Below, piece by piece: positions 87 to 21,450 of a stretch of 21,906 bases of DNA. The notes beneath the pieces were generated by a model. It had not been told where the DNA came from. It saw only the letters and a program-made list of their open reading frames with translations, and ran no database searches. Each line of letters begins with the position of its first letter. Positions within the stretch are counted from its first letter, which is position 1. Position numbers and translations under genes: made by a program. Source of the DNA: a virus; UHGV virus genome UHGV-1665900; one strand, written 5' to 3'.

Positions 87-141
87 TGGAGCACCTCAAA
101 AACACCATCATACACTAAATCAGTAAGTTGGCAGCATCACC
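1..141 (-). mobile_element. IS1-family insertion sequence, left-end fragment continuing off the window start; terminal inverted repeat at about 119..141
   Basis: Reverse complement of 1..141 reads GGTGATGCTGCCAACTTACTGATTTAGTGTATGATGG...GTGGCTTCTGTTTCTATCAGCTGTCCC..., which matches the IS1 left terminal repeat and 5' region as I recall it from IS1/Tn9. Recognition is from memory, not a search. Confidence 0.8.
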
Positions 142-388
142 ACGTGAATCTCCATGATTTCTTCGCCACTGCGCGGCTTCAATCTAAGTACAATTCATTT
201 GCAGCATTGTCTGCAGCAGCAACCGCGCTATTCCAGATTATTGGTTTGTAATGCTTACCAGCCCCAAATTAATCAATACCCAGTGGTATTAGCAATGTCC
301 ATTTCAAGTACATACGTTCTTAAGACATTTGGGCACTGTCATGTCTGTCGGGGAGGAGGTTAAAATCCTCTCGTGCAAAATTTCTTAG

Positions 389-751
389 CTAGAGAATACA
401 AAGAACATCATCTGGTGTTAACACAGAGTCTTCTACGTACTCAGGGTGGTTACGTAATACATCTCTCTGATGTCTCAAGATCTGCGCTGGAATTTCTTGC
501 TCATCCACAATTTTGGCAGTATCCAGCAAAATACTGCCACACCTTATTTCCAGCGAAACAAAGCGATTCCACTCTGGACCATTAGAACACAAAAGGTCAA
601 ACAAAACCTCACCTGTAGCCTGTGAATTGCCCAGTATAACAGAAAGCCTCTTCTCGATTTCGTGAACTGAAGTCAAGGGGTTCTCGTAGCCAGTCGCCAT
701 AACGACGGCAATGAGAGCCCCTGAGACGTTAACACCTGTTATTTCAAACAA
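389..751 (-). CDS. hypothetical protein, 120 aa, second gene of the AT-rich two-gene cassette
   Basis: ORF from the track. Its start codon is TTG at 751..749 with an AAGGA Shine-Dalgarno about 8 nt upstream, embedded in the last codons of the upstream gene, whose TGA stop is at 746..744. The overlap implies translational coupling. I recognise no family. Confidence 0.5.
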   Translation of the reverse strand: MFEITGVNVSGALIAVVMATGYENPLTSVHEIEKRLSVILGNSQATGEVLFDLLCSNGPEWNRFVSLEIRCGSILLDTAKIVDEQEIPAQILRHQRDVLRNHPEYVEDSVLTPDDVLCIL

Positions 752-1814
752 TATACAAATCCTTAATAATTCCCCATGCCTGTCTGGCCTTAGTCATCAG
801 TCGTGCCATGTCAGAAACCATACGGCTTGTGTCGACAACTATCTCCATATGAAACAGGCCATGACGTTCTCTGTTAAAGAAAGTATAGGCATCATTAATG
901 GTCTTAACCTTAGCTGACGATAAATTGCATCCAAATTGTTGTTTCAGAATAAATTCACTCCCAATTTTATCAAAATAACGCCCGAAACCATCCTGCGTGA
1001 TTGGCATGCCATATCGGTACATTGTTGATTTAAGTACTCCCTCAACTGAACGTAATTCAGGATACAACAACATACAGTAATCGGGTAAATCGGGGGCGGC
1101 GAGTTTAACACACAGCCCAGAAACGAGCAATTTTTCAACATTCTTATGCAATAGTGGGTACGCATCCCCCATTTCACACTCTAGATGTGAGCGAGCAACT
1201 TCTTTCTGAACTATATACGCTTTGCCATCGTCCTGACGAATGAGAACTTTTTCCAGTCCTTGTAAATCGAGTAGCTCTGACAAGTTGAATATAAACACTC
1301 TATAACATGACAATGGACGCCCTTGTATTTGTAGTGTTCCATTTCTGTGATGCAGACTAACTGTCAACTCATCCTGAAATTCTGGCGAATGAATTTTCCA
1401 CACCGTTGTATGAGTGTTCCGTAAGTATTCGTAAAATTGTATATGTGGCTGCTCTGCTGAGAGCTGAAGTACAGATAAAACGTTCGCTTCAACGAACCCT
1501 TGTAACACCATATTTACCTGTTCAAATTCTGCAGGATTGATGGTTTCATAGAGATCATCAGCCAACTCTTTTCCAAGATTATGATTAGCTCCTGTTTGAT
1601 ACTGGACTGTAGACGTCCCTCCGTTATTATAGAAAATGTTAACAGTTGCCAAAGCTTCTCCTGGTTTAGCAAACACAACCCGAAGTCCTGCTCTTGCACC
1701 AGGCATTGGTCCAATTGAATGGACGGAATAGTTTTTATTTTCAATAAATGCCCTAGACGTAGCCTCAATAGTTGTCCGATCTAAATTTAAATTAGTGTAG
1801 TTCCTGACTGTCAT
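744..1814 (-). CDS. hypothetical protein of unknown function (356 aa from ATG at 1814; 393 aa if the unsupported upstream ATG at 1925 is used), first gene of the AT-rich cassette
   Basis: Long uninterrupted minus-strand ORF in AT-rich DNA. The ATG at 1814 has AGGG about 10 nt upstream; the ATG at 1925 has no purine-rich RBS and lies only about 23 nt inside the foreign-DNA junction. No Walker A, HNH/zinc or transmembrane features are visible by eye. Confidence 0.6.
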   Translation of the reverse strand: MTVRNYTNLNLDRTTIEATSRAFIENKNYSVHSIGPMPGARAGLRVVFAKPGEALATVNIFYNNGGTSTVQYQTGANHNLGKELADDLYETINPAEFEQVNMVLQGFVEANVLSVLQLSAEQPHIQFYEYLRNTHTTVWKIHSPEFQDELTVSLHHRNGTLQIQGRPLSCYRVFIFNLSELLDLQGLEKVLIRQDDGKAYIVQKEVARSHLECEMGDAYPLLHKNVEKLLVSGLCVKLAAPDLPDYCMLLYPELRSVEGVLKSTMYRYGMPITQDGFGRYFDKIGSEFILKQQFGCNLSSAKVKTINDAYTFFNRERHGLFHMEIVVDTSRMVSDMARLMTKARQAWGIIKDLYIV

Positions 1815-1873
1815 TTGCTTAACCCTATAAAAAAATTTAGCAAACTCTACAATATAGCCCCTCTTTAGTCTAA

Positions 1874-2236
1874 TCAGGCGCTGTATCCTGAAATCGGGTA
1901 CCGATAATATCCCTCCTGCAGCCATGTGTTGGTGTTAACAAGATACTGTGTATCAATTGAATCCGTCAGATTGCAAAAGTTGATGCCTCTTTCGCGCAGT
2001 TCCTCCACCAGCACGACAAGATGCCGCATACTGCGCCCTAACCTGTCCAGCTTCCAGACAACCAGAGTGTCACCTGCCGATAATGTCCTGAGCAGTTTTT
2101 TCAGTCCGGGCCTTTCGGACTTCGTACCGCTTATCTTGTCTTCAAAAATCAGTTCACATCCTACACAGTTCAACGCATTACGTTGTAGATCGGTGTTCTG
2201 GTCATTTGTTGATACGCGTACATAGCCAATAAGCAT
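1874..2236 (-). pseudogene. pin: Din-family serine DNA invertase (Pin/Gin/Cin/Hin-like), truncated after about residue 96 and fused to unrelated sequence; probably inactive
   Basis: From ATG at 2236 (GGGAG RBS about 9 nt upstream) the translation is [22 protein letters not shown]...DTLVVWKLDRLGRSM.HL..LV.ELRERGINF..LTDSIDT, which is a serine-recombinase catalytic domain. After LTDSIDT it continues QYLVNTNTWLQEGYYRYPISGYSA*, unlike the expected remainder of the catalytic domain and the C-terminal helix-turn-helix. The [12 protein letters not shown] extension in the ORF track is probably not translated. Confidence 0.85.
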
Positions 2237-2290
2237 GGTGGATCTCCCTGACAAAAGCAGGAATGATGCCATTTGCTCGTTATTTCTGCA

Positions 2291-2316
2291 TTTTCATAAA
2301 CGTTGGTTTGGGAGAA
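2291..2316. other. Din-type inversion crossover site, left copy (pix/gix-like)
   Basis: ttttcataaacg-tt-ggtttgggagaa has the two 12-bp half-sites around a 2-bp core that is typical of hix/gix sites. Its reverse complement ttctcccaaacc-aa-cgttt... matches 4164..4189 at 18 of its first 19 positions. Confidence 0.6.
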
Positions 2317-2637
2317 GCGGCAAAACGGAATGTGGGAACAGGGGAAAATCAGATACCTGATATGTCATCATATGCATCAGGTTCAGGCTGGCGAAAAATG
2401 CCAGATGGTTCAATTGAACAGTGGGGACGAATTAGTTTTCCTGGTGAACACGGGCCTGTATCCGCCAATGTTTCATTCCCGATTCCATTTACACAGACAC
2501 CGGGAATTGTAATTGTGTGCGATGGTGGTTTCGGGGGCGGGAATATGTGGGGGGCGACCAACTGGAGCACTACCGGCTTCATAGCTCACTGCAATTATGG
2601 TCTTGAAGGTGGTGCGTTTTTCGCTAAGGGCTGGTAA
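2303..2637 (+). CDS. alternative tail-fibre C-terminal cassette (Sv'-like), promoterless and without its own start; expressed only after inversion fuses it to the constant part of the fibre gene
   Basis: The open frame reads ...[18 protein letters not shown]...[16 protein letters not shown]...AKGW*. The crossover site encodes (N)VGLGE here and (LEN)LGLGE in the fibre gene at 4164..4189, so inversion would keep the frame. Confidence 0.55.
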
Positions 2638-3080
2638 TGATGAAATATCTGTACGTAAACAACCTGGCATATCCTTACGAACTTCAGTCTCTTTATGTTG
2701 AAAAAGGTGAATGGCCTGAAGAAAAAGGTGTTGATATAGACGAAGTAATTTTCAGGGAATATTTCTATGATACACCACCAGAAGGAAAATACAGATGTGT
2801 CGGAGAGGATGGACTGCCTGCATGGGCAGATATTCCTCCACCAACACGTGAAGAACAAATTGCATCAGCCGAAACTAAAAAGCAGCAATTGATTAACCAG
2901 GCCAACGAATACATAAACAGTAAACAATGGCCAGGTAAAGCATCAATTGGTCGTCTGAAAGGTGAGGAACTGGCGCAATATAATTTGTGGCTGGATTATC
3001 TGGACGCACTGGAACTGGTCGATACTTCCGGTGCGCCAGATATTGAATGGTCTACGCCTCCGGCAGTTCAGGCCAGATGA
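2637..3080 (+). CDS. tail fibre assembly protein, alternative copy (U'-like)
   Basis: 147-aa ORF whose ATG overlaps the stop of the Sv' cassette (TAATG). Its C-terminus ...LWLDYLDALELVDTSGAPDIEWSTPP resembles the conserved Tfa C-terminal motif and parallels the minus-strand copy (...LDYIDAVTATDTSTAPDVIWPELP). It converges on that copy. Confidence 0.8.
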   Translation: MMKYLYVNNLAYPYELQSLYVEKGEWPEEKGVDIDEVIFREYFYDTPPEGKYRCVGEDGLPAWADIPPPTREEQIASAETKKQQLINQANEYINSKQWPGKASIGRLKGEELAQYNLWLDYLDALELVDTSGAPDIEWSTPPAVQAR

Positions 3081-3645
3081 CGTCCGGCGCTGTGCTGGTA
3101 TCTGTTGCCGTCACCGCGTCAATGTAATCCAGCACAGCGTTAAGTCGGGTGTTTTCTGGCTGCGTCAGCTTCCGCCCAGCCTGTAATTTCAGTTGAATCA
3201 GACTGATGGAAGCCATTGCAGCATCAATCAGCGACTGGCGCTGTGCTTCTGCCGCTTCTACTGCGGCGCTATGCTGTGCCTCGGTATCCGTCACCCATTT
3301 CTCACCATCCCATTTATCGTATGGCGTTAACGGTGAAAGCGTGACATAACCGTCTTTGATGGCACCGATATAATCCACTGTAACAGCTGCGCCATTTTCA
3401 GTTGAGTAAACGGTCTCATTGCGATGGTCTTCTTCATGGCTCCATCCCTTACCCGTAAATACTGCCACTTTTCCCGGGATGTTTTCGCCCGGGTCAATAC
3501 CAGTGGAACAGGCGGGTATACTTACGCCAGTATTAATATATTCATCAGACCAGCCGGTATATTCATACGTTACTGCATTATAATAAAAACAACGCATATC
3601 GCCCGGCACTGTAGCCAGCCCATTTTCATCAAAAACAGGTATCAT
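3052..3645 (-). CDS. tail fibre assembly protein (U-like, currently expressed orientation)
   Basis: 197-aa ORF immediately downstream of the tail fibre gene with start/stop overlap; conserved Tfa-type C-terminus. Confidence 0.85.
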   Translation of the reverse strand: MIPVFDENGLATVPGDMRCFYYNAVTYEYTGWSDEYINTGVSIPACSTGIDPGENIPGKVAVFTGKGWSHEEDHRNETVYSTENGAAVTVDYIGAIKDGYVTLSPLTPYDKWDGEKWVTDTEAQHSAAVEAAEAQRQSLIDAAMASISLIQLKLQAGRKLTQPENTRLNAVLDYIDAVTATDTSTAPDVIWPELPEA

Positions 3646-4466
3646 TATTTAGCCCTCACCAGAAAGTTAAATGCAATATTTCGTGGACGGGTTTCTGTAT
3701 CTACATTTCCACTAATTTCACCATAACGTTTAACACTACGAGAGCTAAGAGCTCGTAGTGAGGAAGGCACCTTAAGACCGGGTTCGTCCGTTTTAACTAT
3801 TCCCCCGTCACCGTATGTAGCCAGTATTCCTGGGTTTACTCCTTCCCGTGCACTTCCTGCGGCAAGCCCGTCCCCCGTCCACAATTCCATATTGTGTGCA
3901 TGATCCATAATTGTGTGTGATTGCCCTGAAAGTAGGGTACGTCCGACATCAATCCCGCGCCCATCATCCCAGATACGAATGAAATCACCCCGTGCGTCAG
4001 GTAATGCTAGCGCCGGAAACACTTTCGCCAGCACAGGGTAATCAGTGGCAGAGAATTTCGCGCCGTTGAACTTCAAAAACACCATACTGGACCAACTGTC
4101 GATTACAGTATTTGGCATTGCGGCGGACGGCCAGAAGAACGGAACGCCAATAGCTGGAGCACCTTCTCCCAAACCAAGGTTTTCGAGAGCCGTTTTCACC
4201 GTGCCATCCGATTTGATATCGCCAAACGGATTCTTGCGGCTTAACAGCAGCGCACGAAGCGCTGTAAGCAGCTGGTCATGCCGCCCCTTCTCTAGGCTGG
4301 CACCGGATGCCTCCACAACACTGCAAAGTTCCTCCTGCAACATGTCAAAGTAGTCATCATCCAGATCGGTGGCAGGTGTGCCGGTCTGGGGGTTACCACG
4401 GGTAAAACCGTTCTTACCCGCGCCGAACTTATCCTTCTGCGCGGTTTTCGTGTCTATACGATGCAT
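3645..4466 (-). CDS. tail fibre protein (constant N-terminal part plus currently joined variable C-terminal part)
   Basis: 273-aa [49 protein letters not shown]..., an N-terminus typical of enterobacterial prophage side tail fibres. The right crossover site lies inside it at 4164..4189. Confidence 0.85.
4164..4189. other. Din-type inversion crossover site, right copy, inside the tail fibre gene
   Basis: ttctcccaaacc-aa-ggttttcgagag, in inverted orientation relative to 2291..2316. Confidence 0.6.
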
Positions 4467-4469
4467 GGA

Positions 4470-5054
4470 TTACTCCGGATATTTAAAAATTACGTAGGTA
4501 TGCGACGGGCAGAGTTTGTTAAGCACACATTCGACAACGGTGTCGCCCCAGATACGCAGCGCGGAATCACAGGGATCGCCACATGTCATCCAGGTGGTGT
4601 TTGTGGCGGCTGGCATGTTGACCTGCCAGTAATACCGCCATTCCGGCGCATTCACCGCGTCAGTACAGACCGATGAGCAGGTGAACGTGCTTTTGTCGTA
4701 TCGCGTGATGTTGGCATCTGGTCTGCCCAGGGCAGCAAGCTGTGCAAGGTAAAAATCCTCATTGATGCCGCCCGCCAGATTAACCTTCGCATCCAGCCGT
4801 TGCTGACGCTGGCGAAGGGTCTGCGTCCCTGCCGGAATACATTCATCCGGCAGGCCGCACAGACGCTCCCAGCGGTTTATCAGTTCAGTGGTGGTGCGCG
4901 GATCCAGCTCCCGCATCAGGGCATCCGCACGCTGATGAACACGGGTTAATGACGGTGCCGCACCGGCAATCGCCGGATCGCTGGCTGACCACGCCGGACC
5001 GGGGGGCAACAGTGCCGACAACAGACGGATGTAATCATCGTTTGTCACGTCCAT
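4470..5054 (-). CDS. ymfQ: baseplate protein, YmfQ / Mu gp48-like
   Basis: 194-aa [25 protein letters not shown]..., with the position and size of e14 YmfQ, immediately upstream of the fibre gene. Confidence 0.75.
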
Positions 5055-6103
5055 GAAATCGTCCCCAGAACCGCCAGTTCATTTTTTGCAATGGAGATAT
5101 TGTCTGTCGGTGCAAGCAACTGATGGCTGTATTCCCCGTTCGCACCGGAAATCGCCTCACTGATACGCGATACCTTCAGTTCTCCCTGCGGATAACCATC
5201 ACGCAGCAGGAACGAACGCAACTCCGCGGTGATGGCAGCCCGTATTTCCGGTGTGTCCGGCGTCACGCGGATATGAAAATCCACCGTATGTGCCACCGGC
5301 CTAAACACATACAAATCAGAGCCTGCCACCGGGGCCAGTGGCTCGATATGTTGTCTTGCCGCCGTTTCCGTTGATTCTTCCGGAATGGGATTAATCAGGT
5401 CACTGCTGGCAATCATCACACCGACAGTTCCCGTTCCCATCCAGTGACGGTATGTCCATGCGCGGGTAATGCCGGGCACTTCTTTAGCCCAGACAACATA
5501 GTCCCCGTCAGCCCCGCCCTGCGGCGTCCAGTAATACCGCTCAATGACGCGGGCGCGCCACGTTTCCAGCTCTTCAGTATCAAATCCGCCTGTCAGGGTG
5601 TCAGCCACACCGGAAGACGGCAGACCATTCACCGGCGTGACCAGGATTAATGCCGTACCGTCGTCAGCGTTACCGACCGCACCTGCACTTGAGCAGGCGA
5701 TCGGCACGCGCAGGACACCACCGGAGCTGGTTGCATCGTCAGTTGTCGTGTACTGCACCAGGTCATCGCGCTGAATAACACTCCCGGCGGTCACCTTCAG
5801 GCCATCGCTGACACCTTCCCAGCGCATATACCCACTGGCAGCCGTGGCTCCCTTGCGCGGACACCGTTTCATCGCAGCATGTCGCGCCAGCCAGGACTCA
5901 TCGCACAGGTCAGGCAGCATGTTCATTGCCAGATAATCGATGTAACCGTAAACCGTATGCAGCGCCGCCGCATACACCTTTGCCCGCACGTCTTCATCCA
6001 TGCGCCGGAGCGTGTCGCTGACGTCCAGCCTGGCGAATAAATCGTTACGGAGCATACTGATATTTTCTGCCAGCGTCGGGCGCTGAAATTCACTGTCCGC
6101 CAT
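5045..6103 (-). CDS. baseplate J-like protein (Mu gp47-like)
   Basis: 352-aa ORF in the conserved baseplate position between the gp46-like and YmfQ-like genes; overlapping stops and starts. Confidence 0.75.
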
Positions 6104-6518
6104 GCGTTATCGCACTCCACAGATCATCAAAAGAAATCATTACCGGTCCGTCACGACGCCAGAGAGTGATACTGTTACCCAGTTCATTAATCCCGGTGCG
6201 GCGGATATCCAGATCAATACGGGACACCACGCCGTCATCAATCATCCATTGCAGGCATTCGCGGATATACCCCCTTACCGTCTGCACCAGCTGATTGGTC
6301 AGTTTGCTGCGCTGAAGCAGCCACAGTCGGGAGCCGTAACGGTCATTCTGTACCGCAGGCCAGGTATCCCCCCACCATCCCATCGGGACGTCGGCATTGT
6401 CATCAGGTTCAGCCCGCCGCCAGGTGAACAGGGAAATCACCACGGCACGGGTCAGCGGATCCATCGGTGCGCTGGCACAGGTGCGTTTACCGTTCACCGT
6501 CAGCCACAGTTCCATCAT
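6090..6518 (-). CDS. baseplate protein, GP46 family (Mu gp46-like)
   Basis: 142-aa ORF in the conserved position between the V-like and J-like genes. Confidence 0.65.
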   Translation of the reverse strand: MMELWLTVNGKRTCASAPMDPLTRAVVISLFTWRRAEPDDNADVPMGWWGDTWPAVQNDRYGSRLWLLQRSKLTNQLVQTVRGYIRECLQWMIDDGVVSRIDLDIRRTGINELGNSITLWRRDGPVMISFDDLWSAITHGGQ

Positions 6519-7063
6519 GCCTCCATCGCTTTATCAGGTTTGTCGGTGTTACTGCCCTGACCGTTCTCTCTGTGACGATGCCCGTTATAGGCAAGCCGCA
6601 TCGCTGACATGGTGGTGCCGCTGGAGTCGCACAGGTCTTTCACCTGTCCGGTCACTTCCAGGTCCATTTCAAAACGAGCCTTAGGCGCATTGCGAAACGT
6701 GATCGTTTTACCTGCACCGTCCACCACGATCCCCGCCCGGGTCAGCGTCACGGACTGCCCCTGATCGTCATAGACAGCCACCTCACCCGTCTGCAGCCCT
6801 TTCAGGCGGTAGCGTCGGTCCGACACCGTAACAACCACCGCATGAGAACGGTCACCATCCGGAAACAACACCACCGCTTCCGCACCGCTGTTTGCCCTTG
6901 CGGTAAAACCGTAGGGTTCAAGATGTTCAACCCCGGCTTTGGGTTCACCGGCAATCAGGGACACATCCACGGTCTGACATTTCGTGGCGGCACTGATGCT
7001 TTTCACCACCGCCCGCCCAATCAGGCCGAGGAGTTGTCGCTGTATGGTTTCAATCGTCCTCAT
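6515..7063 (-). CDS. baseplate assembly protein V-like (spike, Mu gp45-like)
   Basis: 182-aa ORF in synteny after the hub gene. Confidence 0.7.
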   Translation of the reverse strand: MRTIETIQRQLLGLIGRAVVKSISAATKCQTVDVSLIAGEPKAGVEHLEPYGFTARANSGAEAVVLFPDGDRSHAVVVTVSDRRYRLKGLQTGEVAVYDDQGQSVTLTRAGIVVDGAGKTITFRNAPKARFEMDLEVTGQVKDLCDSSGTTMSAMRLAYNGHRHRENGQGSNTDKPDKAMEA

Positions 7064-8142
7064 CAGAACGGGTCCTCCTGTACTCTGGCTTTTTTCTTTT
7101 TCCGCGCGCCGGGATCTTCGGGTTCAGGCAGATAAGCATCAGGCGGGCCGACACGGATTTCCGTCAGGGTGCCGTTCTGGTCCTGAGTAAACGTGACTTC
7201 CGAGACAAGCAGTTCGGTATTATCGAAACCACAGACCGGATCAAAGACAATCACCCGCTGGTTGGGCTGCCACAGCGTACCGTTACCCTGTCGCCAGCCC
7301 TGCACCACATAGGTGGTTTCATCCGTCCGCGCCGCCCGTTGCCGGGCTTCAAAGTCAGCACGCGCAATACAGCCTGCCCCCGTGGCCTGCCCTGTCTGCC
7401 TGATATACATCGGACGGTAACGGGCAATAAATGCGTCCTCTGTGCGGGCCCGCAGCGCGGTGGTGGTGGCCTCACCGAAATCATCGTCGTTTCCGGCACG
7501 CTGCCCCGCCACCTGGTAAACAGAAAACCGCTCCCGGATACTCTTCTCCGTATCGCAGGAAAGGATGTTTTCCCCGAGTACCAGCGCAGTATGTGCCCGC
7601 GTTGAGCCAATACCGCCAATCACCAGCCTGCCGTGCGGGTCGTCGTAAGCCAGTGCCTGCTGCTGACCGAGTATTTTGTTGATCACCTCAATCACCGTTT
7701 CACCGTGATCAGGCTGGACATCAGGAATAACACCCGACGGCGCACCGTTGTTCACCACCTCAATGCCGAAAGGCGCAGCAAGCGCCTGCGCAATCTGTAC
7801 CAGCGATCGTCCGTTAAAGTGTGTCGGTTCGGCTGCACAGTCAATCAGGTCAGCGGTCAGACTGCGTCCGGCAATACCGGTGCTGACCGAACGGGCATCG
7901 TAACGAACGGGCGTCGCCTCCACCCAGCCGGTGATCACCAGCTCATCACCAATCAGCACCTCCACTTTTGAACCGTTTTTAATGCGCGGCTGAAGCGTGG
8001 TGATACCCTCATCACCCGGCCACTGGCGGGTGATCTCCACACTGAAATCCCGCGCCAGTCGTTCAACACCGGCACCGATGCGCACCGATGTCCAGCCATT
8101 CCACTCCCGGCCATTTACCCGTAGCGTGACATTGTCGTTCAT
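7063..8142 (-). CDS. baseplate hub protein (Mu P / gp44-like)
   Basis: 359-aa ORF following the DNA-circulation-like gene; order N-P-V-gp46-J as in Mu-type tails. Confidence 0.7.
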   Translation of the reverse strand: MNDNVTLRVNGREWNGWTSVRIGAGVERLARDFSVEITRQWPGDEGITTLQPRIKNGSKVEVLIGDELVITGWVEATPVRYDARSVSTGIAGRSLTADLIDCAAEPTHFNGRSLVQIAQALAAPFGIEVVNNGAPSGVIPDVQPDHGETVIEVINKILGQQQALAYDDPHGRLVIGGIGSTRAHTALVLGENILSCDTEKSIRERFSVYQVAGQRAGNDDDFGEATTTALRARTEDAFIARYRPMYIRQTGQATGAGCIARADFEARQRAARTDETTYVVQGWRQGNGTLWQPNQRVIVFDPVCGFDNTELLVSEVTFTQDQNGTLTEIRVGPPDAYLPEPEDPGARKKKKARVQEDPF

Positions 8143-9467
8143 TGCACTGGCACCTTCAGAGGGATCACCGGCACAAAGCCGGGATGCGTAATGGCATTAC
8201 GCCGGATAATGTCCGCATCACGCGCCGCGTTATCAAACCAGGTCGCCGCCAGCACCAGCGCGGGTAAAACCTCATCCGGTGTGCGCTGAATGATCCGTGC
8301 AGACTGTTCAAGGCGCGTGTTGATATCCGCATTCAGATCTGCTTTCACCCGGCGCAGTGCCAGAAACAGCGCATCACTGGTTGTACGGGACAACTCCTTA
8401 TCAATTGCCGTATTCAGTGTGTCGCGAATGTCAGTCAGTTCTTCCCACGTTGGCAGGTCAACCGTGTTTTTCACCGCCGGTGCATTGTTCAGTGCCGGAT
8501 GCGTGACGGAAGGCCAGCCAGTGCTCTGCGCAGGTGTTGTTGACTGCCCCACTGCGGCATTCTGCATCACCGCGGAAGTTGTTGGCGCAGGCAATCGGGT
8601 GACGGCATACGCCGCTTCGCTGATTGCGGTCGTACGAAGGGTACTGGCAACCTCGTTACGCTGATGCGTCGCCGTGGCGGTGGTTTTACTGTCCGTTTTC
8701 CAGACGCCGCGCGGTTGCAGATCGCTGCCGAGGCTGACACCGGAAAGCGTTTTGATCATGGTGACCAGGTCGCTGGCGTTACCATAAAGGCGTTTCCCGG
8801 TACGCCACATTTTCTGCACCTGCTCAACGAAATTTTTGCCTGACGATGGTGGCGGCAGAAGTACCGAGATATCCCCCTGCAACAGCCTGGCAGCATCCGA
8901 TACGGCAGAATCCACCACTTTCATCGCATCAGAAACATACCCAAGCATTGTGCTGGCATTACCGACGACGTCGTTCTGCACAAAATCCGCCACGCCATCG
9001 ATACTGAAACCGCTGAAGCTGTCACTGATGCAGTCATCCAGTGCAGAACAGGATGACATCAGCGTCTGCGCCGTCGCCGCACCTGATGTGGGGTAAGAGA
9101 GTTCTCCCGCTTCGACAAACTTCAGGTCAAAGCGGACAATACGCCCTTCACTCTTCGATGTGCTGACCCGAACCTCTCCATCAACACAGACTTTCAGCTC
9201 ACCGTAAGTCGGATGGACAAGCGTGCCGGGACCGGGTTTATTCAGCGCGTCAATCAGGCGATCGCGCTGGTCAAAGCAGTCATCTCCCACCACATAAGCC
9301 GTGATGGACGGGCGGAAAGTGATTTTCCCCAGGTCTTCAGTATAGGGTTTGTCGCGGTTCGGGTATTCGTGCGTTTCCACACGACGACCGGTTCCCGCAC
9401 TTTCTTCTTCAACCTTAAACGGCACACCGCGAAATGACGCGTCCTGAAGTCTGTCTTTCCACGTCAT
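8139..9467 (-). CDS. DNA circulation protein (Mu N / gp43-like)
   Basis: ORF with N-terminal motif ...WKDRLQDASFRGVPF.... Preferred start is ATG at 9467 (MTWKDRL) with GGAG about 7 nt upstream, rather than the ORF-track start at 9509. Confidence 0.7.
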   Translation of the reverse strand: MTWKDRLQDASFRGVPFKVEEESAGTGRRVETHEYPNRDKPYTEDLGKITFRPSITAYVVGDDCFDQRDRLIDALNKPGPGTLVHPTYGELKVCVDGEVRVSTSKSEGRIVRFDLKFVEAGELSYPTSGAATAQTLMSSCSALDDCISDSFSGFSIDGVADFVQNDVVGNASTMLGYVSDAMKVVDSAVSDAARLLQGDISVLLPPPSSGKNFVEQVQKMWRTGKRLYGNASDLVTMIKTLSGVSLGSDLQPRGVWKTDSKTTATATHQRNEVASTLRTTAISEAAYAVTRLPAPTTSAVMQNAAVGQSTTPAQSTGWPSVTHPALNNAPAVKNTVDLPTWEELTDIRDTLNTAIDKELSRTTSDALFLALRRVKADLNADINTRLEQSARIIQRTPDEVLPALVLAATWFDNAARDADIIRRNAITHPGFVPVIPLKVPVQ

Positions 9468-9480
9468 ATAAACTCCGTAC

Positions 9481-9506
9481 ATAAAAAATCCCACCGGAGT
9501 GGGACT
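9481..9506 (-). terminator. putative intrinsic terminator (probably partial) between the tape measure and DNA-circulation genes
   Basis: On the minus strand: GC-rich hairpin tcccac-tccg-gtggga followed directly by TTTTTTAT. The stem is only 6 bp. Confidence 0.4.
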
Positions 9507-9527
9507 CATTAACAGATTAATTTTTCA

Positions 9528-11363
9528 TTACCTGCCAAAGCGCGTATAGCCAACATCATGGCTGACATCAAAACCGCTGGATCGCGTTTCCATAACCCGC
9601 ATACCCGGAGGCGAATTCACAAAAGAGACCTTGATCTCACCATCAACTTTTGGCGCAGTAGCTTTATTAATCATGAAGGGATTCGGGCCTGTGGCATCGG
9701 AGGCGTTGTTTGACTGAGCCAGATCTACCGCCGGATAAGGTGTGTATCCCCGTGCCGGTATTCCCGTCCCATAAGCATCATAAGCACCCGCGCCCCACTG
9801 CGCAGAGTTAATGGCATCGACCGTGTCTCCGGAACTGTCGGTAAACCACTCAATAATTGGCTTCAGCTTGTCCCACATATCCTGAAACCACTTAACAACC
9901 GGCCCCCAGTTATTGATCACCATCCCCAGCGGCGACCAGGCAAAAACTTTCTTAAGGAGTTCCCAGCCAGCCTCAAAATAAGGACCAATGGTTTCCCAGA
10001 GCTTCTTGAAATAAGGTCCGACAATATCCCAGTTAGTGATAATTAATCCCGCAGCCAGGGCTATCGCCGTCGCAATCATGCCAATCGGCGTCATCGACAT
10101 GATCCTGCTGACAATGCTGATGGCACTGCCCACGCCCATCAATCCCAGTTTCAGAATCGCAAGACCGGCAGCAAGCCCGACGACGCCGCGAATAACCCGG
10201 GGATTTTCATCCGCAAACTTCGTGAATTTTTCCCCCAACTCCCCCAGCCATTGCGTGATATTTTTAGCGTCACCAGAAAATGCGCCGCCAATAGCTGCAA
10301 GACCGTTAGTTGCGGTCCCCGTCATTGCCTCCCACAGGTTGGACAGCGTACCAAGCTGTGCCTGAACACGTTTATTCAGGCTGGCCTGTTTATGCATCTT
10401 CTGCTGGATCTGATCGTAACCATCCTTTCCTTTATCGATCAGAGCATTGACCACCTGAAGGGTTTCGGCATCATCACCAAATATTGCCTTAAGTACACCG
10501 GTTCGCTTAACGTCGGTCAGTTTTCGCAGCTTTGCCAGTTGCCTGAACATGTTATCAAGACCGCCAAAACTCCCTTTGCCATCAGTAAAATCGAGCTGTA
10601 CCCCGAGTTTCTGGCGGGCCATGATTTTATTGACGTCCCTGATTTTCTTAACGCTTAATCCGGACTGGATAACTTTTCGCAGGGCATTACCTGCCGACTC
10701 CCCGTTCATCCCCATCTGATCCATCATGACACTGATGGGGGCAAGACTCTGTGCAGCCTGAAGACCGTCCTTATTCACCATCTTCAGAACAGAGCTGGTT
10801 TTAGTGAAGAATGACAGCATGTTGGTGTCGTCAACGCCCAGATAAAACGCCTTCTGAATTGTGTCGAACAGCCCCATCATGTCTTCTGAGGCCGTTCCGG
10901 TAGCATCCTGCATCTTTGCGGCAAACTCGGCAGCCGCTTCCGGTGTTTTTTTCAGTTGTACCGCAAGATAAGCTGTCGCTTTACCCACACCACCCAGAAT
11001 GTTTTCTGCCGGGATCCCCTGACGCACCAGCATCTGCATCATGTTCTGGAAATCAGCCGTTGTACCGGGTAGCTGGTTACCCAGGCCAATAGCCAGTTTA
11101 TTGATGTCCTGAAAGCTCTTTCCGACCTCACCGTTCGCATCCATCATGGCAACTTTCAGCCCGGTGGCGGCGTTTTCCTGATCGGCATAAGATTTCAGGG
11201 AAAGCGTCAGACCCGCAGCCAGTCCGCCACCAAGCGCCAGCCCACCCTGTGACGCTTCTTCCGCCTGGCGTTTAAATCCCCGGATTTTCTTTTGCATTTT
11301 CGACAGCGCGGGAGAAAGCCTGTCGACACCGGTGATCAACGCCTTAAGCTCAAATTCAGCCAT
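9528..11363 (-). CDS. tail tape measure protein
   Basis: 611-aa ORF, Ala/Gly/Leu-rich with hydrophobic stretches, directly after the chaperone frameshift pair and before the baseplate genes. Confidence 0.85.
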   Translation of the reverse strand: MAEFELKALITGVDRLSPALSKMQKKIRGFKRQAEEASQGGLALGGGLAAGLTLSLKSYADQENAATGLKVAMMDANGEVGKSFQDINKLAIGLGNQLPGTTADFQNMMQMLVRQGIPAENILGGVGKATAYLAVQLKKTPEAAAEFAAKMQDATGTASEDMMGLFDTIQKAFYLGVDDTNMLSFFTKTSSVLKMVNKDGLQAAQSLAPISVMMDQMGMNGESAGNALRKVIQSGLSVKKIRDVNKIMARQKLGVQLDFTDGKGSFGGLDNMFRQLAKLRKLTDVKRTGVLKAIFGDDAETLQVVNALIDKGKDGYDQIQQKMHKQASLNKRVQAQLGTLSNLWEAMTGTATNGLAAIGGAFSGDAKNITQWLGELGEKFTKFADENPRVIRGVVGLAAGLAILKLGLMGVGSAISIVSRIMSMTPIGMIATAIALAAGLIITNWDIVGPYFKKLWETIGPYFEAGWELLKKVFAWSPLGMVINNWGPVVKWFQDMWDKLKPIIEWFTDSSGDTVDAINSAQWGAGAYDAYGTGIPARGYTPYPAVDLAQSNNASDATGPNPFMINKATAPKVDGEIKVSFVNSPPGMRVMETRSSGFDVSHDVGYTRFGR

Positions 11364-11774
11364 GTGTGCGTTTCTCCTGCTCTATCCTGTTTGCCTGACT
11401 GACCAGCAAGGGAATTTCACTGATCGGCATATTCAGCAATTCGAAGGGATTAATGCGCCAGTAGCTGGCGCAGTCAAAGAAGCGATCAGTGAGGTATTCA
11501 GCCGTCAGGCCTGGAGGAAAAAACCAGCCACAAGCCACGCCGCTGCATTCAGGTCTGCCGGAGACATCTGGTCGACAGAGCTTTGCGGCACTTTCGCCAG
11601 CCGCACAATGTATTTCGACACCACATGCGCCAGAAGTCTGACGGACTCATCCTGATTCATCTGGTAGGGATACCCCAGCTCGCGGACATCCTTCCCGGTG
11701 GGTTCATCAAACTCCAGTACGGAGAGTGTCTCACCATGAGCGATAATCGGTTTCTTTAACTCAAGCTCTTTCAT
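11356..11774 (-). CDS. tail assembly chaperone, long form made by programmed -1 frameshift (G-T-like fusion)
   Basis: The 89-aa ORF (11505..11774) and the 60-aa -1-frame ORF (11356..11538) overlap at a T_TTT_TTC slippery heptamer (plus-strand 11517..11523). The -1 frame ends 8 nt inside the tape measure start. Confidence 0.55.
11505..11774 (-). CDS. tail assembly chaperone, short form
   Basis: 89-aa ORF between the tube and tape measure genes. Confidence 0.7.
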   Translation of the reverse strand: MKELELKKPIIAHGETLSVLEFDEPTGKDVRELGYPYQMNQDESVRLLAHVVSKYIVRLAKVPQSSVDQMSPADLNAAAWLVAGFFLQA

Positions 11775-12130
11775 TACTGGTAATCCCCTTCTTCACCGTG
11801 AAATTCAATATCGACCGTGCCTTCTTCGGCATTATGGTTCGCTTCGCCGTGCAGCCAGGCTGACGACAATACATAGACCTGACCGTTCGCCAGCTCGGCA
11901 GTGATGGTCATCTCATCAGACGAGGTGATTTTGCTCACCGGAAAATTCTTCGGCACCTTGAAGGTCCCTTTGACATAAGGCGCACGGTGAGTTTCCTTGC
12001 GGTCCACTGAACCGTCCAGGCCGATGATGTCATCATTGACCGTCCTGTTCATGGGCACCTCAATGCCGCCGGTCAGCGATAGCTGCTGACCGTCAATTTT
12101 GAAATAACAGGTTCCCCCGATACGGGCCAT
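11774..12130 (-). CDS. tail tube protein (Mu M-like)
   Basis: 118-aa ORF immediately downstream of the sheath gene, with start/stop overlap. Confidence 0.8.
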   Translation of the reverse strand: MARIGGTCYFKIDGQQLSLTGGIEVPMNRTVNDDIIGLDGSVDRKETHRAPYVKGTFKVPKNFPVSKITSSDEMTITAELANGQVYVLSSAWLHGEANHNAEEGTVDIEFHGEEGDYQ

Positions 12131-13626
12131 TATGCGGACTCCTCTGAATACTGAAGACGGAACTGGTTAACCACGGCAAAGACACGCAGCTGGTTAACAT
12201 AGTCAGGCGGGAACAGCGTGTTCAGGCGATTTGGATCGCTGGCATCACGCTCCACAACCAGGTACTGCTTAAACAGTTCGTAGTTTTCCACGATGCCCGC
12301 ACGCTCGAGCTGACGGTAGGTTGCCAGCAGTTCGCCTTTGATTACCGCCGGGGTGACAATCGCCTGACCGGGACCAAAGCGGGTACCGTCGCTGGCAAGC
12401 TTGTGACGCCCGTACTTACTGGTAATGACGGATTTCAGTTTGCGCAGTACATACGCACTGGTATGCAGCGTCTCGCTGTCGAGGTAGCTGTTATCCGCAA
12501 CCCCGTAAGCATTTTTCCTGTACGTGGTGACATCACGCTGAATGCGCAGCACCCCGCTTTCGACATACGCCGTTGCCACGCCATGAGACAGCAGGGTCTG
12601 CTGCTCGGTCATCGTGAACCGTTTCCCCTTCGGCGCAGGCAGCATACCCACCAGCTCACCGGTCTGCGTGGGACGTGCCGGATCGTTGCGGATAAACACC
12701 GCTGCGCGGGCGGTACGGCTTGCCGCCAGCTCGTCGGCAGGCGTCTGGGTCTCTTTTTCGTACCCCGCCAGGGTGATGTGCTGCTGGTTAAACTGGTCAC
12801 CTGCGTTCACCAGTTCTGACAGTGTGCCGGTCTTTGCCGTATACACATGACCATACAGCTGACGCGCATAGCTCCAGCGACCGCTGGTATCGTTCATCTC
12901 GGTCACCAGCGTGTTAACGGAGGCCGTGTCGTTGAACGGCAGACCGATATAATCAAACGGCTCATCCGCCATTGCAGCCACCGCACCGGTGAGAACCGGA
13001 GCGCCCGTTCCGGCGGTCCCCGTCGCCACGGCAATCTGTACGCCCGCTGGCAGCACTTCGCCCCCACCGAAGCCGTAGTAATTGAGGCTGACAGGAATTT
13101 CATTCCCACAAAGCCCCTTATGACGCGCGGTCAGCGTGACAACACCAGCCGAAGATGAAGCTGTAAACGGCAGAGTCGGAACGGCATTGATGGCATCTTT
13201 GATACTGCTGGCAATCGTCGTGACGTTATCGCCGTTGGTCACCGGAGCCTGCACGCGGGTACGTCCCACATAGACATTCACCGTGCCGCTTTCGGTTGCT
13301 TCCCCGGTCACCGTCAGCGTAACCGTTGCCGCCGCGCCTGTGGCTTCCGGAACGGCAATCACATACAGCTCACCAAACGGGTCGGTCTGGCGATAAGCCT
13401 CGACCATACGCGCCAGCTGACTTCCCGCACCACAAATCTGGCGTGCATAGTCTGCCGACGGCATCAGCACCAGACTGTTGGCAACAATCTCTGCACCGTT
13501 ATTGGCATGACCAATCAGCAGCGATGCTCCGCTGTCCTGTGCAGTATTCGCAGCCTGGTTATCCATTTCCGCATAAAACAGCGGAACCAGCGTATTCGAC
13601 GGAATGGTGTTAAAGCTTATCGTCAT
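12130..13626 (-). CDS. contractile tail sheath protein (Mu L-like)
   Basis: 498-aa ORF with AAGGTG RBS; size and position typical of a sheath gene. Confidence 0.85.
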   Translation of the reverse strand: MTISFNTIPSNTLVPLFYAEMDNQAANTAQDSGASLLIGHANNGAEIVANSLVLMPSADYARQICGAGSQLARMVEAYRQTDPFGELYVIAVPEATGAAATVTLTVTGEATESGTVNVYVGRTRVQAPVTNGDNVTTIASSIKDAINAVPTLPFTASSSAGVVTLTARHKGLCGNEIPVSLNYYGFGGGEVLPAGVQIAVATGTAGTGAPVLTGAVAAMADEPFDYIGLPFNDTASVNTLVTEMNDTSGRWSYARQLYGHVYTAKTGTLSELVNAGDQFNQQHITLAGYEKETQTPADELAASRTARAAVFIRNDPARPTQTGELVGMLPAPKGKRFTMTEQQTLLSHGVATAYVESGVLRIQRDVTTYRKNAYGVADNSYLDSETLHTSAYVLRKLKSVITSKYGRHKLASDGTRFGPGQAIVTPAVIKGELLATYRQLERAGIVENYELFKQYLVVERDASDPNRLNTLFPPDYVNQLRVFAVVNQFRLQYSEESA

Positions 13627-13780
13627 CGGTGTTCACCTTTTTATTCACGCGCCGGATATCACCCGCTGCTTCACGGCGCAGCCAGTAGTTGTTCTCATCA
13701 ACATTTCGCCCTTCGGCGGGCAAAAGGTCGCCGCGGGCAGGGTCAGGCACTGACCGCCCTTTAACAGGTTTCACAAACAT
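13610..13780 (-). CDS. small hypothetical protein, 56 aa, upstream of the sheath gene
   Basis: Hand-translated (below the ORF-track length cut-off): ATG at 13780 with GAGGA 6 nt upstream gives MFVKPVKGRSVPDPARGDLLPAEGRNVDENNYWLRREAAGDIRRVNKKVNTDDDKL*. It overlaps the sheath start by 17 nt. Confidence 0.4.
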   Translation of the reverse strand: MFVKPVKGRSVPDPARGDLLPAEGRNVDENNYWLRREAAGDIRRVNKKVNTDDDKL

Positions 13781-13788
13781 GATGATCC

Positions 13789-14349
13789 TCAGGAAGGAAG
13801 GGGTATTTCGGTGTGATGTTCGATATCGCCGTCAGGCCCGTTACCGGGATCGAGATAATCAACATCAATCGCCAGCGTTCGCAGTTCATCCAGACTGTTC
13901 AGGTCATCCTGCTGGCGGGTATCGTCTTCGGTCAGCTCGCTGATGACCGAAAAATCGAACTGATAAATCAGCTCATGACGATTCAGATCCAGCAGCGTGC
14001 CGCCGTCATAGGTAATCGGGTTACCGCACGCTTCCGGGTTCCAGCCCAGCAGAGCCTTAAAGAGCATCTGCCGGACATCGTCCACCACATCATACGAGGC
14101 AAACTGACCGCGCTCATCACGCCAGTTACTCAGTATGACAACCACGGAGAAGCCCTCTTTCAGCTCCTGCCAGTAGTCGGTCTGGCTTTTGTTTTCTCCC
14201 GGAGAGTCATCACCCGGTACCACATATGCCGCCGGGAGTTTCAGCTTTCCGACCTCCGGCAGATTTTTGAACTGGGCCGCGCCTGCAACCCGGTTTTCAA
14301 AATACGGACAGCGGGCACGCAGTGCAGCAATAACAGGCGTCAGTTTCAT
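13789..14349 (-). CDS. tail-proximal virion protein (Mu gp37-like / tail completion)
   Basis: 186-aa acidic ORF between the head-tail joining genes and the sheath gene; assignment is by position. Confidence 0.55.
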   Translation of the reverse strand: MKLTPVIAALRARCPYFENRVAGAAQFKNLPEVGKLKLPAAYVVPGDDSPGENKSQTDYWQELKEGFSVVVILSNWRDERGQFASYDVVDDVRQMLFKALLGWNPEACGNPITYDGGTLLDLNRHELIYQFDFSVISELTEDDTRQQDDLNSLDELRTLAIDVDYLDPGNGPDGDIEHHTEIPLPS

Positions 14350-14852
14350 CTGTGTCGTCGCTCCGGCTTCAGTGATTTACGCAATTCCCGCGCCAGAAAA
14401 TAGCGTGTCCAACTGCGGTTCTTTTCAAGCGTTTCCACCATGAAGTTATTACGTGGAGCCAGTCGCCAGCCGCTGCCACCGGATGCACCACGATGATGGC
14501 TGCGACGACGCTTTGCCCCTCGCCTCACGCCATAGAACAAAAAAGCCGGATAAAAATCACCGGTGATACGGCGGTTTCCCTCTCCATTACGCTGGTTAGG
14601 GGCTATACGTGCCATAAAACCAGGGCGATGTTTACTGGCTCTGGGTACCATGTAACCAATCGAACGAGCCAGGCGTCCGGTCTGATAACCGGGGTTTTCA
14701 CCCGGTGCCGACCGCGCACGGCGCATCACCAGCCGACGGGCATCACGCATATGACGCTGACCAATCGTGACAAACGCCCGCCGGACACGGGCGCGGTTAA
14801 AGCGCATCTCCGCGGGCTGCTGAAAATCAACGTGCAAAAAGGAAGTCGTCAT
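14346..14852 (-). CDS. virion morphogenesis / head-tail joining protein, very Arg-rich
   Basis: 168-aa strongly basic ORF in the head-tail joining block; assignment is by position. Confidence 0.5.
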   Translation of the reverse strand: MTTSFLHVDFQQPAEMRFNRARVRRAFVTIGQRHMRDARRLVMRRARSAPGENPGYQTGRLARSIGYMVPRASKHRPGFMARIAPNQRNGEGNRRITGDFYPAFLFYGVRRGAKRRRSHHRGASGGSGWRLAPRNNFMVETLEKNRSWTRYFLARELRKSLKPERRHR

Positions 14853-15237
14853 TGTTGCCTCCGTGACTCTGCCTACATTCGCCCAGCTCCGTACACTCCA
14901 GCAGCAGAAAGCGCCGCGCCCCGTTCAGATCGCGCTGACGTTTCACCCGGTACACACTGTCACCGCAGACCACCTCATAATCAGCGGTGATCCCCCGGCG
15001 GTAACGAATGGTGATGTAATGGGTGATGGCGTCCCCGGTCTGCGCGGTTTCCTGCCAGGTGGTGGCACTGGTCTGGATAACCTTCGCCCATGTCCGGAAC
15101 GTAACCGGGTATTGAGGCTCCACGCCAAAGTTATCCACGGGCATATCCACCCGCAGGCGGATCAGGACGCGTTTATTCAGTTCACCGGGGTCCGGCAGAA
15201 TGTAGGTTGCGCTGGTCTGCGCCTGACGAATTTTCAT
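14827..15237 (-). CDS. head-tail adaptor / head closure protein
   Basis: 136-aa ORF directly after the gp6-like connector; order as in HK97-type head modules. Confidence 0.55.
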   Translation of the reverse strand: MKIRQAQTSATYILPDPGELNKRVLIRLRVDMPVDNFGVEPQYPVTFRTWAKVIQTSATTWQETAQTGDAITHYITIRYRRGITADYEVVCGDSVYRVKRQRDLNGARRFLLLECTELGECRQSHGGNNDDFLFAR

Positions 15238-15557
15238 TGCGGAAAGTACCTGTACGGGCCGACAAGCCAGCCAAAACTCTGCGGCATGTCGAGTTTCTCC
15301 ACTTCCGTAACCGACGAGCGGTTTTCGTAAAAATGGCTGATAAGCATCAGCATCCCCAGACGAATATCATCCGGCAGGTGCAGCCCGTCCGGATCGCTGT
15401 CCGGAATGGTTTCATCCGGTGCATAGAGCTTCCGGTTCAGATACGTTTCCGTCCGCTTTTGTGCCGCACATGCCAGCAGTTGTAGATGGCGGTCATCAGT
15501 ATCGAAATCCTCATCCAGCCGGAGTTGGGCTTTAATCTCTTCCATTGTCAGAAGCAT
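15234..15557 (-). CDS. head-tail connector protein (HK97 gp6-like)
   Basis: 107-aa ORF with N-terminus MLLTMEEIKAQLRLDEDFDTDD..., characteristic of gp6-like connectors. Confidence 0.65.
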   Translation of the reverse strand: MLLTMEEIKAQLRLDEDFDTDDRHLQLLACAAQKRTETYLNRKLYAPDETIPDSDPDGLHLPDDIRLGMLMLISHFYENRSSVTEVEKLDMPQSFGWLVGPYRYFPQ

Positions 15558-15559
15558 AC

Positions 15560-15760
15560 TCAGCCCTCTTTACTGGTCGTGGCTTTTTTCTCTTTTGCCG
15601 CTTTACTGCTTTTTGCACTGATTCCGCGCTCTGCTAACCCGGCCTGAAGTGCAATCTCCTGCACCCGGGCAGGAAGCGCCCCGTCGTCATACTCACCGGC
15701 CCGAATGACCTCAACACGCATACCGTCCGGTGACCATTTCAGATCTTGTTTCAGGATCAT
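15560..15760 (-). CDS. small hypothetical protein, 66 aa, Lys-rich C-terminus
   Basis: ORF between the capsid and connector genes; weak RBS. Confidence 0.4.
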   Translation of the reverse strand: MILKQDLKWSPDGMRVEVIRAGEYDDGALPARVQEIALQAGLAERGISAKSSKAAKEKKATTSKEG

Positions 15761-15782
15761 GATTCTTCACCCGTCAGAACAG

Positions 15783-15802
15783 GGGGCGCGGTTCCGCGCC
15801 CC
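15783..15802 (-). promoter_or_regulatory. GC-rich stem-loop immediately 3' of the major capsid gene
   Basis: Perfect palindrome ggggcgcgg-tt-ccgcgcccc; no U-tract follows on the coding strand. Confidence 0.45.
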
Positions 15803-15809
15803 TGAGTGA

Positions 15810-17015
15810 TTACGCCGCTGCAATCTTCAGCAGTTTGATGGCCTGCGAATCGACCAGCATCCCGCCGGTGCGCTTGGTGGTATAAAAACCGACAAACGGT
15901 TTATTGGTGTACGGGTCACGCAGAATGCGGGTGCCGATACGGTCAACGATGGTGTAACCCCGTTTGAAGTTACCAAATGCAATGGCTTTCGCATCAGCGG
16001 CGATATCCGGCATCTGTTCGTTTTCAGCGATACCGTAACCCGCCAGAGAGGACGGCTGCCCCAGTTCCAGCCCCGGACGCCACAGATAGTTACCCTCGGT
16101 GTCTTTCAGCAAACGGATGGCAAACAGGCTGTTGTTGTTCATCATGAACTTCGCGCCGGTGCGGTGTGCCTTTCGCAGCGTGTAAATCAGTTTGATAATG
16201 GCGTCTGCGGTCACCCCCGTCGCTTCGCCGGATACAATATGCTGAAGTTTGCCGAACGCCCGGACCTTATCGGTTTCATCGGTGGATTCATACGCCAGGA
16301 ACCCTTTCGGCTTCTTGGTACCATCGCCTGAGGTAAAGGCAATTTCTTCCTGTTCGGCAAATTCGGTTGCCAGCTCGCTGTTGATCCAGGCCTCCACGTT
16401 GAAGAAGGCATCGTCCAGCATTTTCTGGGTAGCCTGCGGGTTGCCGTAGATTTCCCCCATGAGAGGTTCAATCAGCTCCAGTCTGGAGGTGGCAGTCTGG
16501 GATCGCGTATCCGTTTCCCCCACCCATCCGGAAGCCGTACCGCCCAGATTCACCAGTTTTTTGTAGTCGGAACCGCCAACGGTGATCACCGTGGCTTCCT
16601 GACGCATCACCACTTCATCTTTCAGCAGGTTAAGAATGTTGCGATCCAGTTCTTCCGGCACGGCGTAGCCACCGTCTTCATTGGTGCCCACCTGCAATGC
16701 CTTACGCTCCAGATCGCGCAGACCGTCTTCACGGCCTTTACGCAGGAAGCCCACAAACGCCTCTTTATGCTCGGTGGCCAGTTTATTTTGCGCTCCACCT
16801 GCCGGACGTTTCAGCTCAAGCAGCTCTTTTTCAAGATCGCTTTTGAGGTTTTCCAGCTCGCTGAGTTTCCCGTTCAGGGTTTCCACCTGCCCGGCAAGTT
16901 TGCCTTTTTCCTGCTCAATCGCATCCACGCGCTTGTCGTTCTTTGCTTTGAAGTCGTCAAACTTCTGCTGCAGCTCCTGCGCGACCTGTTCGACATCTTT
17001 AATATCAACCGCCAT
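15810..17015 (-). CDS. major capsid protein, HK97 type, with coiled-coil N-terminal domain
   Basis: 401-aa ORF with AGGAG RBS; N-terminus ...VEQVAQELQQKFDDFKAKNDKRVDAIEQEKGKLAGQVETLNGKLSELENLKSDLEKELLELKRP; follows the protease gene. Confidence 0.85.
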   Translation of the reverse strand: MAVDIKDVEQVAQELQQKFDDFKAKNDKRVDAIEQEKGKLAGQVETLNGKLSELENLKSDLEKELLELKRPAGGAQNKLATEHKEAFVGFLRKGREDGLRDLERKALQVGTNEDGGYAVPEELDRNILNLLKDEVVMRQEATVITVGGSDYKKLVNLGGTASGWVGETDTRSQTATSRLELIEPLMGEIYGNPQATQKMLDDAFFNVEAWINSELATEFAEQEEIAFTSGDGTKKPKGFLAYESTDETDKVRAFGKLQHIVSGEATGVTADAIIKLIYTLRKAHRTGAKFMMNNNSLFAIRLLKDTEGNYLWRPGLELGQPSSLAGYGIAENEQMPDIAADAKAIAFGNFKRGYTIVDRIGTRILRDPYTNKPFVGFYTTKRTGGMLVDSQAIKLLKIAAA

Positions 17016-17029
17016 CGTATTTCTCCTGA

Positions 17030-18899: not shown

Positions 18900-19081
18900 T
18901 ATTTACCTCCGCCGACAGACGACTGTGTACGGTCAAGATATCGCGCCACCAGCCACGACCAGAACAGGCACAACGCCCCGGCAACAACAAACCCCGCCGG
19001 GGGATAAATCAGCCAGGCACCATACGCCAGCAAAAGCGCCCCCAGCACGCCCACCAGAGGCGCGAGAATCAGCATGATCAT
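18899..19081 (-). CDS. small hydrophobic protein, 60 aa, two predicted transmembrane helices
   Basis: [49 protein letters not shown]...; GAGGT RBS 6 nt upstream of the ATG; its stop overlaps the portal GTG start. Confidence 0.5.
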
Positions 19082-19092
19082 AATTACCTCAG

Positions 19093-20826: not shown

Positions 20827-20839
20827 GATTCGATGATTT

Positions 20840-21325: not shown

Positions 21326-21375
21326 ATGCGGCACTCCTGGTTAAATTTCATTTTTCGCGGGTATAAAAAAACGAT

Positions 21376-21424: not shown

Positions 21425-21450
21425 TCCCCTCTGTCAGTGGGAACTGATTC

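Follow-up and report, generated by a model that had tools for sequence, protein, structure and literature searches.

Organization of the tail-fibre locus

The sequence analysed here, a stretch of 21,906 nt from the virus genome UHGV-1665900 (hereafter the window), belongs to an e14-like prophage, which combines a lambdoid early region with an HK97-type head and a Mu-type tail. Positions 4470-21906 hold a complete-looking structural module, with HK97-type head genes (HNH, TerS, TerL, portal, S78 protease, capsid) and Mu-type baseplate and tail genes (gp45, gp46, gp47, gp48, sheath, tube, tape measure, DNA circularisation protein). TerL is an extremely widespread protein, listed in 18,417 index blocks. 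The remainder of the window contains an invertible tail-fibre segment, an invertase gene that is cut short, an rnlA-rnlB gene pair and the end of an IS1 element (Table 1).

Table 1. Position and assignment of the features of the locus in the 21,906-nt window.
Feature	Position	Strand	Basis or remark
IS1 end at contig edge	1..132		IS1B transposase annotated in L003 and L004 at the corresponding place
rnlB, antitoxin	389..751	-	Pfam RnlB_antitoxin, E = 3.5e-24; overlaps rnlA
rnlA, RNase LS-type HEPN toxin	744..1814	-	four RnlA Pfam domains; RnlA family toxin in PGAP
pinE-type serine invertase ORF, cut short, pseudogene	1874..2236	-	120 aa; Pfam Resolvase, Gin, PGAP
Read-through tail, non-homologous	1874..1949	-	24 codons and stop, 47% GC; without invertase homology
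pin-homologous part, codons 1-96	1950..2236	-	aligned at DNA level with intact pinE from JB2, CX15 and K-12
Putative Fis-dependent recombinational enhancer equivalent	2151..2218	-	pin nt +19 to +86; by homology
Invertase-proximal crossover site	2294..2316	-	inverted repeat I1; central TT 2303-2304; pattern search
Invertible segment, 1,873 bp	2304..4176		measured between central dinucleotides; in silico inversion reproduces L005
Alternative fibre C-terminus Sv', gp53-like C domain	2305..2637	+	Pfam Gp53-like_C
Alternative assembly gene, silent in present orientation	2637..3080	+	Pfam Caudo_TAP, E = 6e-32
Assembly gene paired with expressed Sv	3052..3645	-	Pfam Caudo_TAP, E = 1e-27
Tail-fibre gene, constant N-terminal part and Sv	3645..4466	-	273 aa; in-frame over crossover site
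Distal crossover site within tail-fibre gene	4164..4186	+	central AA 4176-4177; pattern search

A pattern search of the window for crossover sites returned exactly two, against 0 expected by chance. The repeats are 20 nt long and differ by one mismatch, their longest perfect match being about 15 nt. Their core is the same as that of the P-segment repeats of the K-12 prophage e14 (TTGGTTTGGGAGAAG / CTTCTCCCAAACCAA, as quoted in PMC12529663). The constant N-terminus of the fibre is encoded outside the segment, which itself contains two alternative C-termini together with a convergent pair of assembly genes. The convergent genes share 29 nt at their 3' ends (3052-3080), in the middle of the segment. 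Flipping the segment yields a predicted in-frame fibre of 207 aa, and a 207-aa gene is also called in L005, a contig of an isolate assembly (GCA_003291935.1).

The gene order is the same as that of the e14 P segment (stfP-tfaP / tfaE-stfE, pinE, mcrA). Upstream, both prophages have the YmfQ and baseplate J genes; the invertase gene adjoins one crossover site, and defence-type cargo follows at the prophage end. They differ in that e14 is a 15-kb remnant whereas the prophage of the window has a full structural module, and in the length of the segment, which is 1,873 bp in the window versus 1,797 bp in e14, with different fibre variants. Moreover, pinE is cut after codon 96 in the window, where rnlAB stands in place of its 3' half and of mcrA. 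By its layout, the locus fits the e14 P-segment/Mu G-segment type of fibre host-range switch.

The invertase stub and the cis elements of inversion

The shortened invertase gene starts with an ATG at 2234-2236 and ends with a TGA at 1874-1876, on the minus strand. A first reading made from the letters of the sequence only (the sequence-only reading) had described homology to Gin and Pin up to about residue 96, followed by 24 unrelated codons to a stop, and alignments with Pfam, Gin and PinE confirm this description. The Resolvase family PF00239 covers residues 3-97 of the 120-aa ORF (E = 6e-32), corresponding to positions 2-106 of a profile of 145. The alignment of the stub with the structures of Mu Gin (4M6F and 3UJ3, 193 aa) is confined to residues 1-97 (E = 3e-47). 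When PinE of JB2 (184 aa) was compared by tblastn with the six-frame translation of the window, residues 1-96 only were matched, at 96.9% identity. Residues 97-120 of the stub (QYLVNTNTWLQEGYYRYPISGYSA), in which invertase homology would speak against the description, as that reading had itself remarked, matched no invertase in the Gin and PinE comparisons. The same allele is annotated by PGAP as 'recombinase family protein, incomplete, missing C-terminus'.

The remainder of the catalytic domain and the helix-turn-helix (HTH) domain had also been reported as missing, which the tblastn search bears out: with full-length JB2 PinE as query, the residues beyond 96 had no match in any of the six frames of the 21.9-kb window. 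This rules out that the rest of pin is frameshifted or displaced inside the window. Neither a Pfam match to an HTH domain nor a second invertase was found in the window.

In Hin, a catalytic core of about 100 residues is followed by helix E (residues 100-134), which forms the dimer and tetramer interfaces, and by the HTH domain (residues ~143-190), which binds the site (PMC2724282). The stub keeps the nucleophile Ser9 (codon TCA at 2210-2212, motif YVRVSTNDQ) and the conserved arginines of the catalytic core. Its homology stops at residue 96/97, leaving it without the oligomerisation helix E. The break had been placed in the middle of the catalytic domain; this is right for the domain as Pfam defines it, with helix E included, but structurally the break falls at the end of the core, before helix E. 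Because helix E and the HTH DNA-binding domain are both missing, the 120-aa stub should be inactive. In contrast to Mu Gin, with which its core aligns, P1 and P7 Cin and Salmonella Hin, it would be a non-functional member of the group.

DNA alignment gives base 1950, the second base of codon 96, as the last one in common with intact pinE, and the breakpoint as 1949/1950. The sequence-only reading had located it correctly but one base away, at 1948/1949. Its account of the base composition does not hold. The read-through tail, said to be AT-rich, has a GC content of 47.4% (1874-1949), equal to that of the homologous part (1950-2236), so that no change of composition coincides with the breakpoint. 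The AT-rich stretch is found at 1815-1873 (30.5% GC), beyond the stop codon. A scan for promoters and terminators around the junction found nothing exceeding shuffle expectation.

Inversion by enzymes of this family also involves a cis-acting enhancer with two Fis sites. That of hin is situated in the part of the gene that codes for the N-terminus, about 100 bp from hixL (PMC2724282, PMC3798978), and that of cin is annotated at +19..+86 of cin in the GenBank record of phage P7; in both genes it is within the first ~90 nt of the CDS, and equivalent DNA is present there in the window. Alignment with cin, gin and pinE shows conservation of this region, which is identical to its counterpart in the prophage CX15, where pinE is intact. 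Prophages in which pinE is intact share both crossover sites, the 1,873-bp segment and the enhancer-equivalent region with 100% identity. As assigned by homology, the retained 287 nt of the stub include the predicted enhancer, and all cis elements for inversion appear to survive.

Cargo exchange and spread of the junction

The products of the rnlA-rnlB pair contain the domains PF19417, PF15935, PF19034, PF18869 and PF15933, and are 71% (RnlA) and 69% (RnlB) identical to their K-12 homologues. PADLOC, which has no fitting model, returned no match to RnlA or RnlB. Domain architecture, gene order and gene overlap are the same as in the rnlA-rnlB pair of K-12 CP4-57. The pair of the window differs from it in allele and in location, being joined to the pin stub at a prophage end in every case. 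Judging by domains and order, it is an RnlA-RnlB type II toxin-antitoxin system; RnlAB is known as an anti-T4 system with an anti-phage RNase (PMC5308261, PMC8266594). The start of rnlA is disputed among gene callers, most of which place it at the ATG 1812-1814 (356 aa), while one call of 393 aa starts at the ATG 1923-1925 (744-1925, minus strand) and overlaps the tail of the pin stub. The alignment with K-12 RnlA begins at the start of the 356-aa form.

In relatives, the intact pinE measures 555 bp and is followed by mcrA (JB2, L002 2796-3629; K-12 e14, L013 5347-6180) or by a GIY-YIG nuclease gene (CX15; LEM-3-like, L018 1333-2106). In the window, rnlAB and the IS1 end stand in for the 3' half of pin and the mcrA-type cargo. 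The cargo behind pin thus differs among otherwise similar prophages, which suggests that the position after pinE is an exchangeable slot for defence cargo at the prophage end. The cargo swap that took place here removed half of pin. IS1 terminates both the contig of the window and its 98-kb sister contig; L005 runs 63 nt further into IS1 than the window does. In 5CRE51, which has no IS1, a 270-bp hypothetical ORF extends across the insertion point (L001 5841-6110).

The pin-rnlA junction (window 1780-2120) occurs in 72 of 5,426 complete E. coli genomes, in single copy. The 135 nt that separate the rnlA start from the breakpoint are likewise found in 72 genomes, in single copy and with at least 99% identity. 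This equal number of single-copy, near-identical occurrences points to a single ancestral junction event. DNA homology of the window to K-12 ends 49 nt upstream of rnlA. The 88 nt between the end of this homology (1861) and the pin breakpoint, at 1862-1949, are DNA without an assigned origin and occur, among complete E. coli genomes, only in the 72 carriers of the junction.

In the complete genomes that bear the junction, the stub is annotated by PGAP as an incomplete recombinase pseudogene, and the junction adjoins decaying lambdoid prophages near thrW. Loss of the second crossover site is frequent among these copies, as in 5CRE51, and those in Res13 and VE-F5 have lost the pin 5' end as well. 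Because the second crossover site is gone, the copies in lambdoid context are uninformative on inversion.

Up to position 2133, the window is identical to the thrW-linked lambdoid remnant of Res13; from position 2016 on, it is identical to the CX15-type e14-like prophage with intact pinE. All three are identical over 2016-2133. This pattern of a match to Res13 on the left, a match to CX15 on the right and a shared interval between them indicates that the stub was joined to the e14-like prophage by homologous recombination in the 5' half of pin, with the exchange in 2016-2133. The chimera may have arisen when two prophages recombined, or when a phage genome integrated through homology in pin. 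Among the 5,426 complete E. coli genomes, the chimera was found in neither orientation, the best match reaching 97.7% with an intact pinE. A search for the exact junction gave 0 matches in species-representative genomes and 2 in JGI metagenomes, both in lambdoid-remnant context and silent on orientation.

Orientation of the segment and state of the switch

In public assemblies, 14 contigs encode a protein identical to the 120-aa stub, among them the window itself, a metagenome contig (ENA ERZ27272196, k141_1033). The segment has the orientation of the window on 9 of these contigs and is flipped on 2, while the other 3 end exactly at 2317. One of the flipped contigs, L005, encodes the identical stub, and its flanks are 99.96-99.98% identical to the window, rnlAB and the IS1 end included. 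When the window was inverted in silico at 2304-4176, it reproduced L005 with 4 mismatches over 12,236 nt and 0 at the junctions. The segment is precisely inverted at the crossover centres in a lineage that carries the stub allele.

The three contigs that end at 2317 (L009, L010 and a similar one) run unbroken from the IS1 end past the truncation point as far as the inner border of the crossover repeat. Such an end is expected in a k-mer assembly graph where one left context has two continuations, which suggests, indirectly, that both orientations were present in those reads. L009 and L010 are Logan contigs of SRR22388991 and ERR2010953 (window 112-2317), with no branch at the truncation point.

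The sequence-only reading had held that the switch is probably locked and the host range fixed, a view at odds with the intact cis elements and with the precise inversion of L005 beside an identical stub. Since the cis sites are intact and a near-identical sister contig is flipped, the fibre switch is probably not locked. We consider it likely that the stub is a pseudogene whose missing part was replaced by rnlAB, that the junction was spread by recombination, and that the segment can still be inverted by a trans-acting Pin-family invertase. According to this scheme, codons 97-184 of pinE and the cargo that followed would have been swapped for rnlA-rnlB by an old illegitimate recombination, and homologous recombination within the conserved 5' half of pin would then have dispersed the junction. 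The stub protein, keeping the catalytic core with Ser9 but neither helix E nor HTH, would be inactive. Any invertase of the Pin/Gin/Cin/Hin type produced elsewhere in the cell could still act on the 1,873-bp segment, which would be flipped in trans by the invertase of a paralogous prophage.

The stub being without helix E and DNA-binding domain, a paralogous Din invertase from another prophage, acting in trans on a segment of the window type, is the likeliest agent of inversion. The sequence-only reading had allowed for a trans-acting Din invertase as an exception to locking; this was the right caveat, and it describes the likeliest state. Plasmid-borne PinQ inverts the e14 P segment (PMC12529663). 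The proposed likeness is to the action of PinQ and PinR on e14 and of Fin of Fels-2 on the Salmonella H segment (PMC12529663). In these systems the cis invertase (PinE or Hin) is intact too, whereas in the window the trans route would be the only one.

The pin-junction probe is matched by 83% of complete E. coli genomes, at a median of 2 places per genome; within the probe, the pin 5' half alone is multi-copy, the rnlA-proximal part being single-copy. The pin 3' half is matched in 36-61% of complete E. coli genomes. At least one additional place matching the pin 5'-half probe is present in 50 of the 60 junction-bearing chromosomes listed.

The main alternative is that, the cis invertase being dead, the segment is frozen in its present orientation with the 273-aa fibre, which would fix the host range. 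The stub without helix E and DNA-binding domain, the absence of another invertase from the 21.9-kb window, and the lack of a clearly matching pin 3' half in 39-64% of complete E. coli genomes are all consistent with freezing. So is the effect of the whole-gene pinE deletion of the Keio collection in K-12, which is reported to lock the P segment although pinQ and pinR are present (PMC12529663). This result means that chromosomal paralogs at native expression may not suffice for inversion. Another explanation of the locking is possible, namely that the deletion also removed the enhancer that homology would place at +19..+86 of pinE; the enhancer is neither discussed nor mentioned in PMC12529663 in connection with the Keio deletion. 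If the deletion does lock the segment by loss of the enhancer, then retention of the stub would be what keeps the segment of the window invertible. Evidence against freezing comes from the sister contig, which has an identical stub, only 4 SNPs in 12.2 kb and a precisely inverted segment, and from the three assemblies that end exactly at the crossover repeat. Both sets of fibre and assembly ORFs are intact, moreover, and the cis sites are all wild-type. We regard a frozen segment as unlikely.

The two orientations could also be older than the truncation, the stub having recombined independently into two oppositely oriented copies of the prophage, in which case the difference in orientation would be uninformative on present-day invertibility. 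The locus is demonstrably recombinant, with its crossover in 2016-2133, and the segment inverts freely in prophages whose pinE is intact, inversions of the P segment being reported in 33% of 562 genomes (PMC12529663). However, a rare exchange would be needed twice in a single 118-bp interval and in near-identical backgrounds, which share the IS1 insertion and differ by only 4 SNPs in 12.2 kb. Contigs that end exactly at 2317 and do not branch where pin is truncated would also be left unexplained. An independent double origin of the chimera is possible but unparsimonious, and we judge it still less probable than freezing.

Least credible of all is inversion without an invertase, by RecA recombination at the short inverted repeats, or by a stub that is still active: despite the single mismatch between the 20-nt repeats and the Ser9 and core arginines kept in the stub, the longest perfect match is only about 15 nt, shorter than efficient RecA recombination in E. 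coli requires. An active stub would also have to do without the interfaces of helix E and the site binding of the HTH domain (PMC2724282).

An extension of the trans-acting scheme is that the truncation is more than decay, the stub having been retained for its enhancer and the proximal crossover site, which would make the switch a 'client' under the sole control of the invertase of another prophage, and that the former pin promoter may now also read into rnlAB. We find this doubtful; if true, it would amount to an obligate dependency between prophages, exceeding the case of PinQ and e14.

The components of the locus belong to known biology, that is, a fibre switch of the e14/Mu type, Pin paralogs acting in trans and exchange of cargo at the prophage end, and no new mechanism is involved. 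The window adds rnlAB to mcrA and the GIY-YIG nuclease gene as a further example of exchangeable defence cargo in the slot after pin. It also indicates that a pseudogenised invertase beside an invertible segment does not amount to a frozen switch. The deciding factors are whether the crossover sites and the enhancer at the start of the invertase gene are preserved, and whether the cell has a paralogous invertase elsewhere; this bears on how phase-variable tail-fibre and host-range loci are scored in genome surveys.
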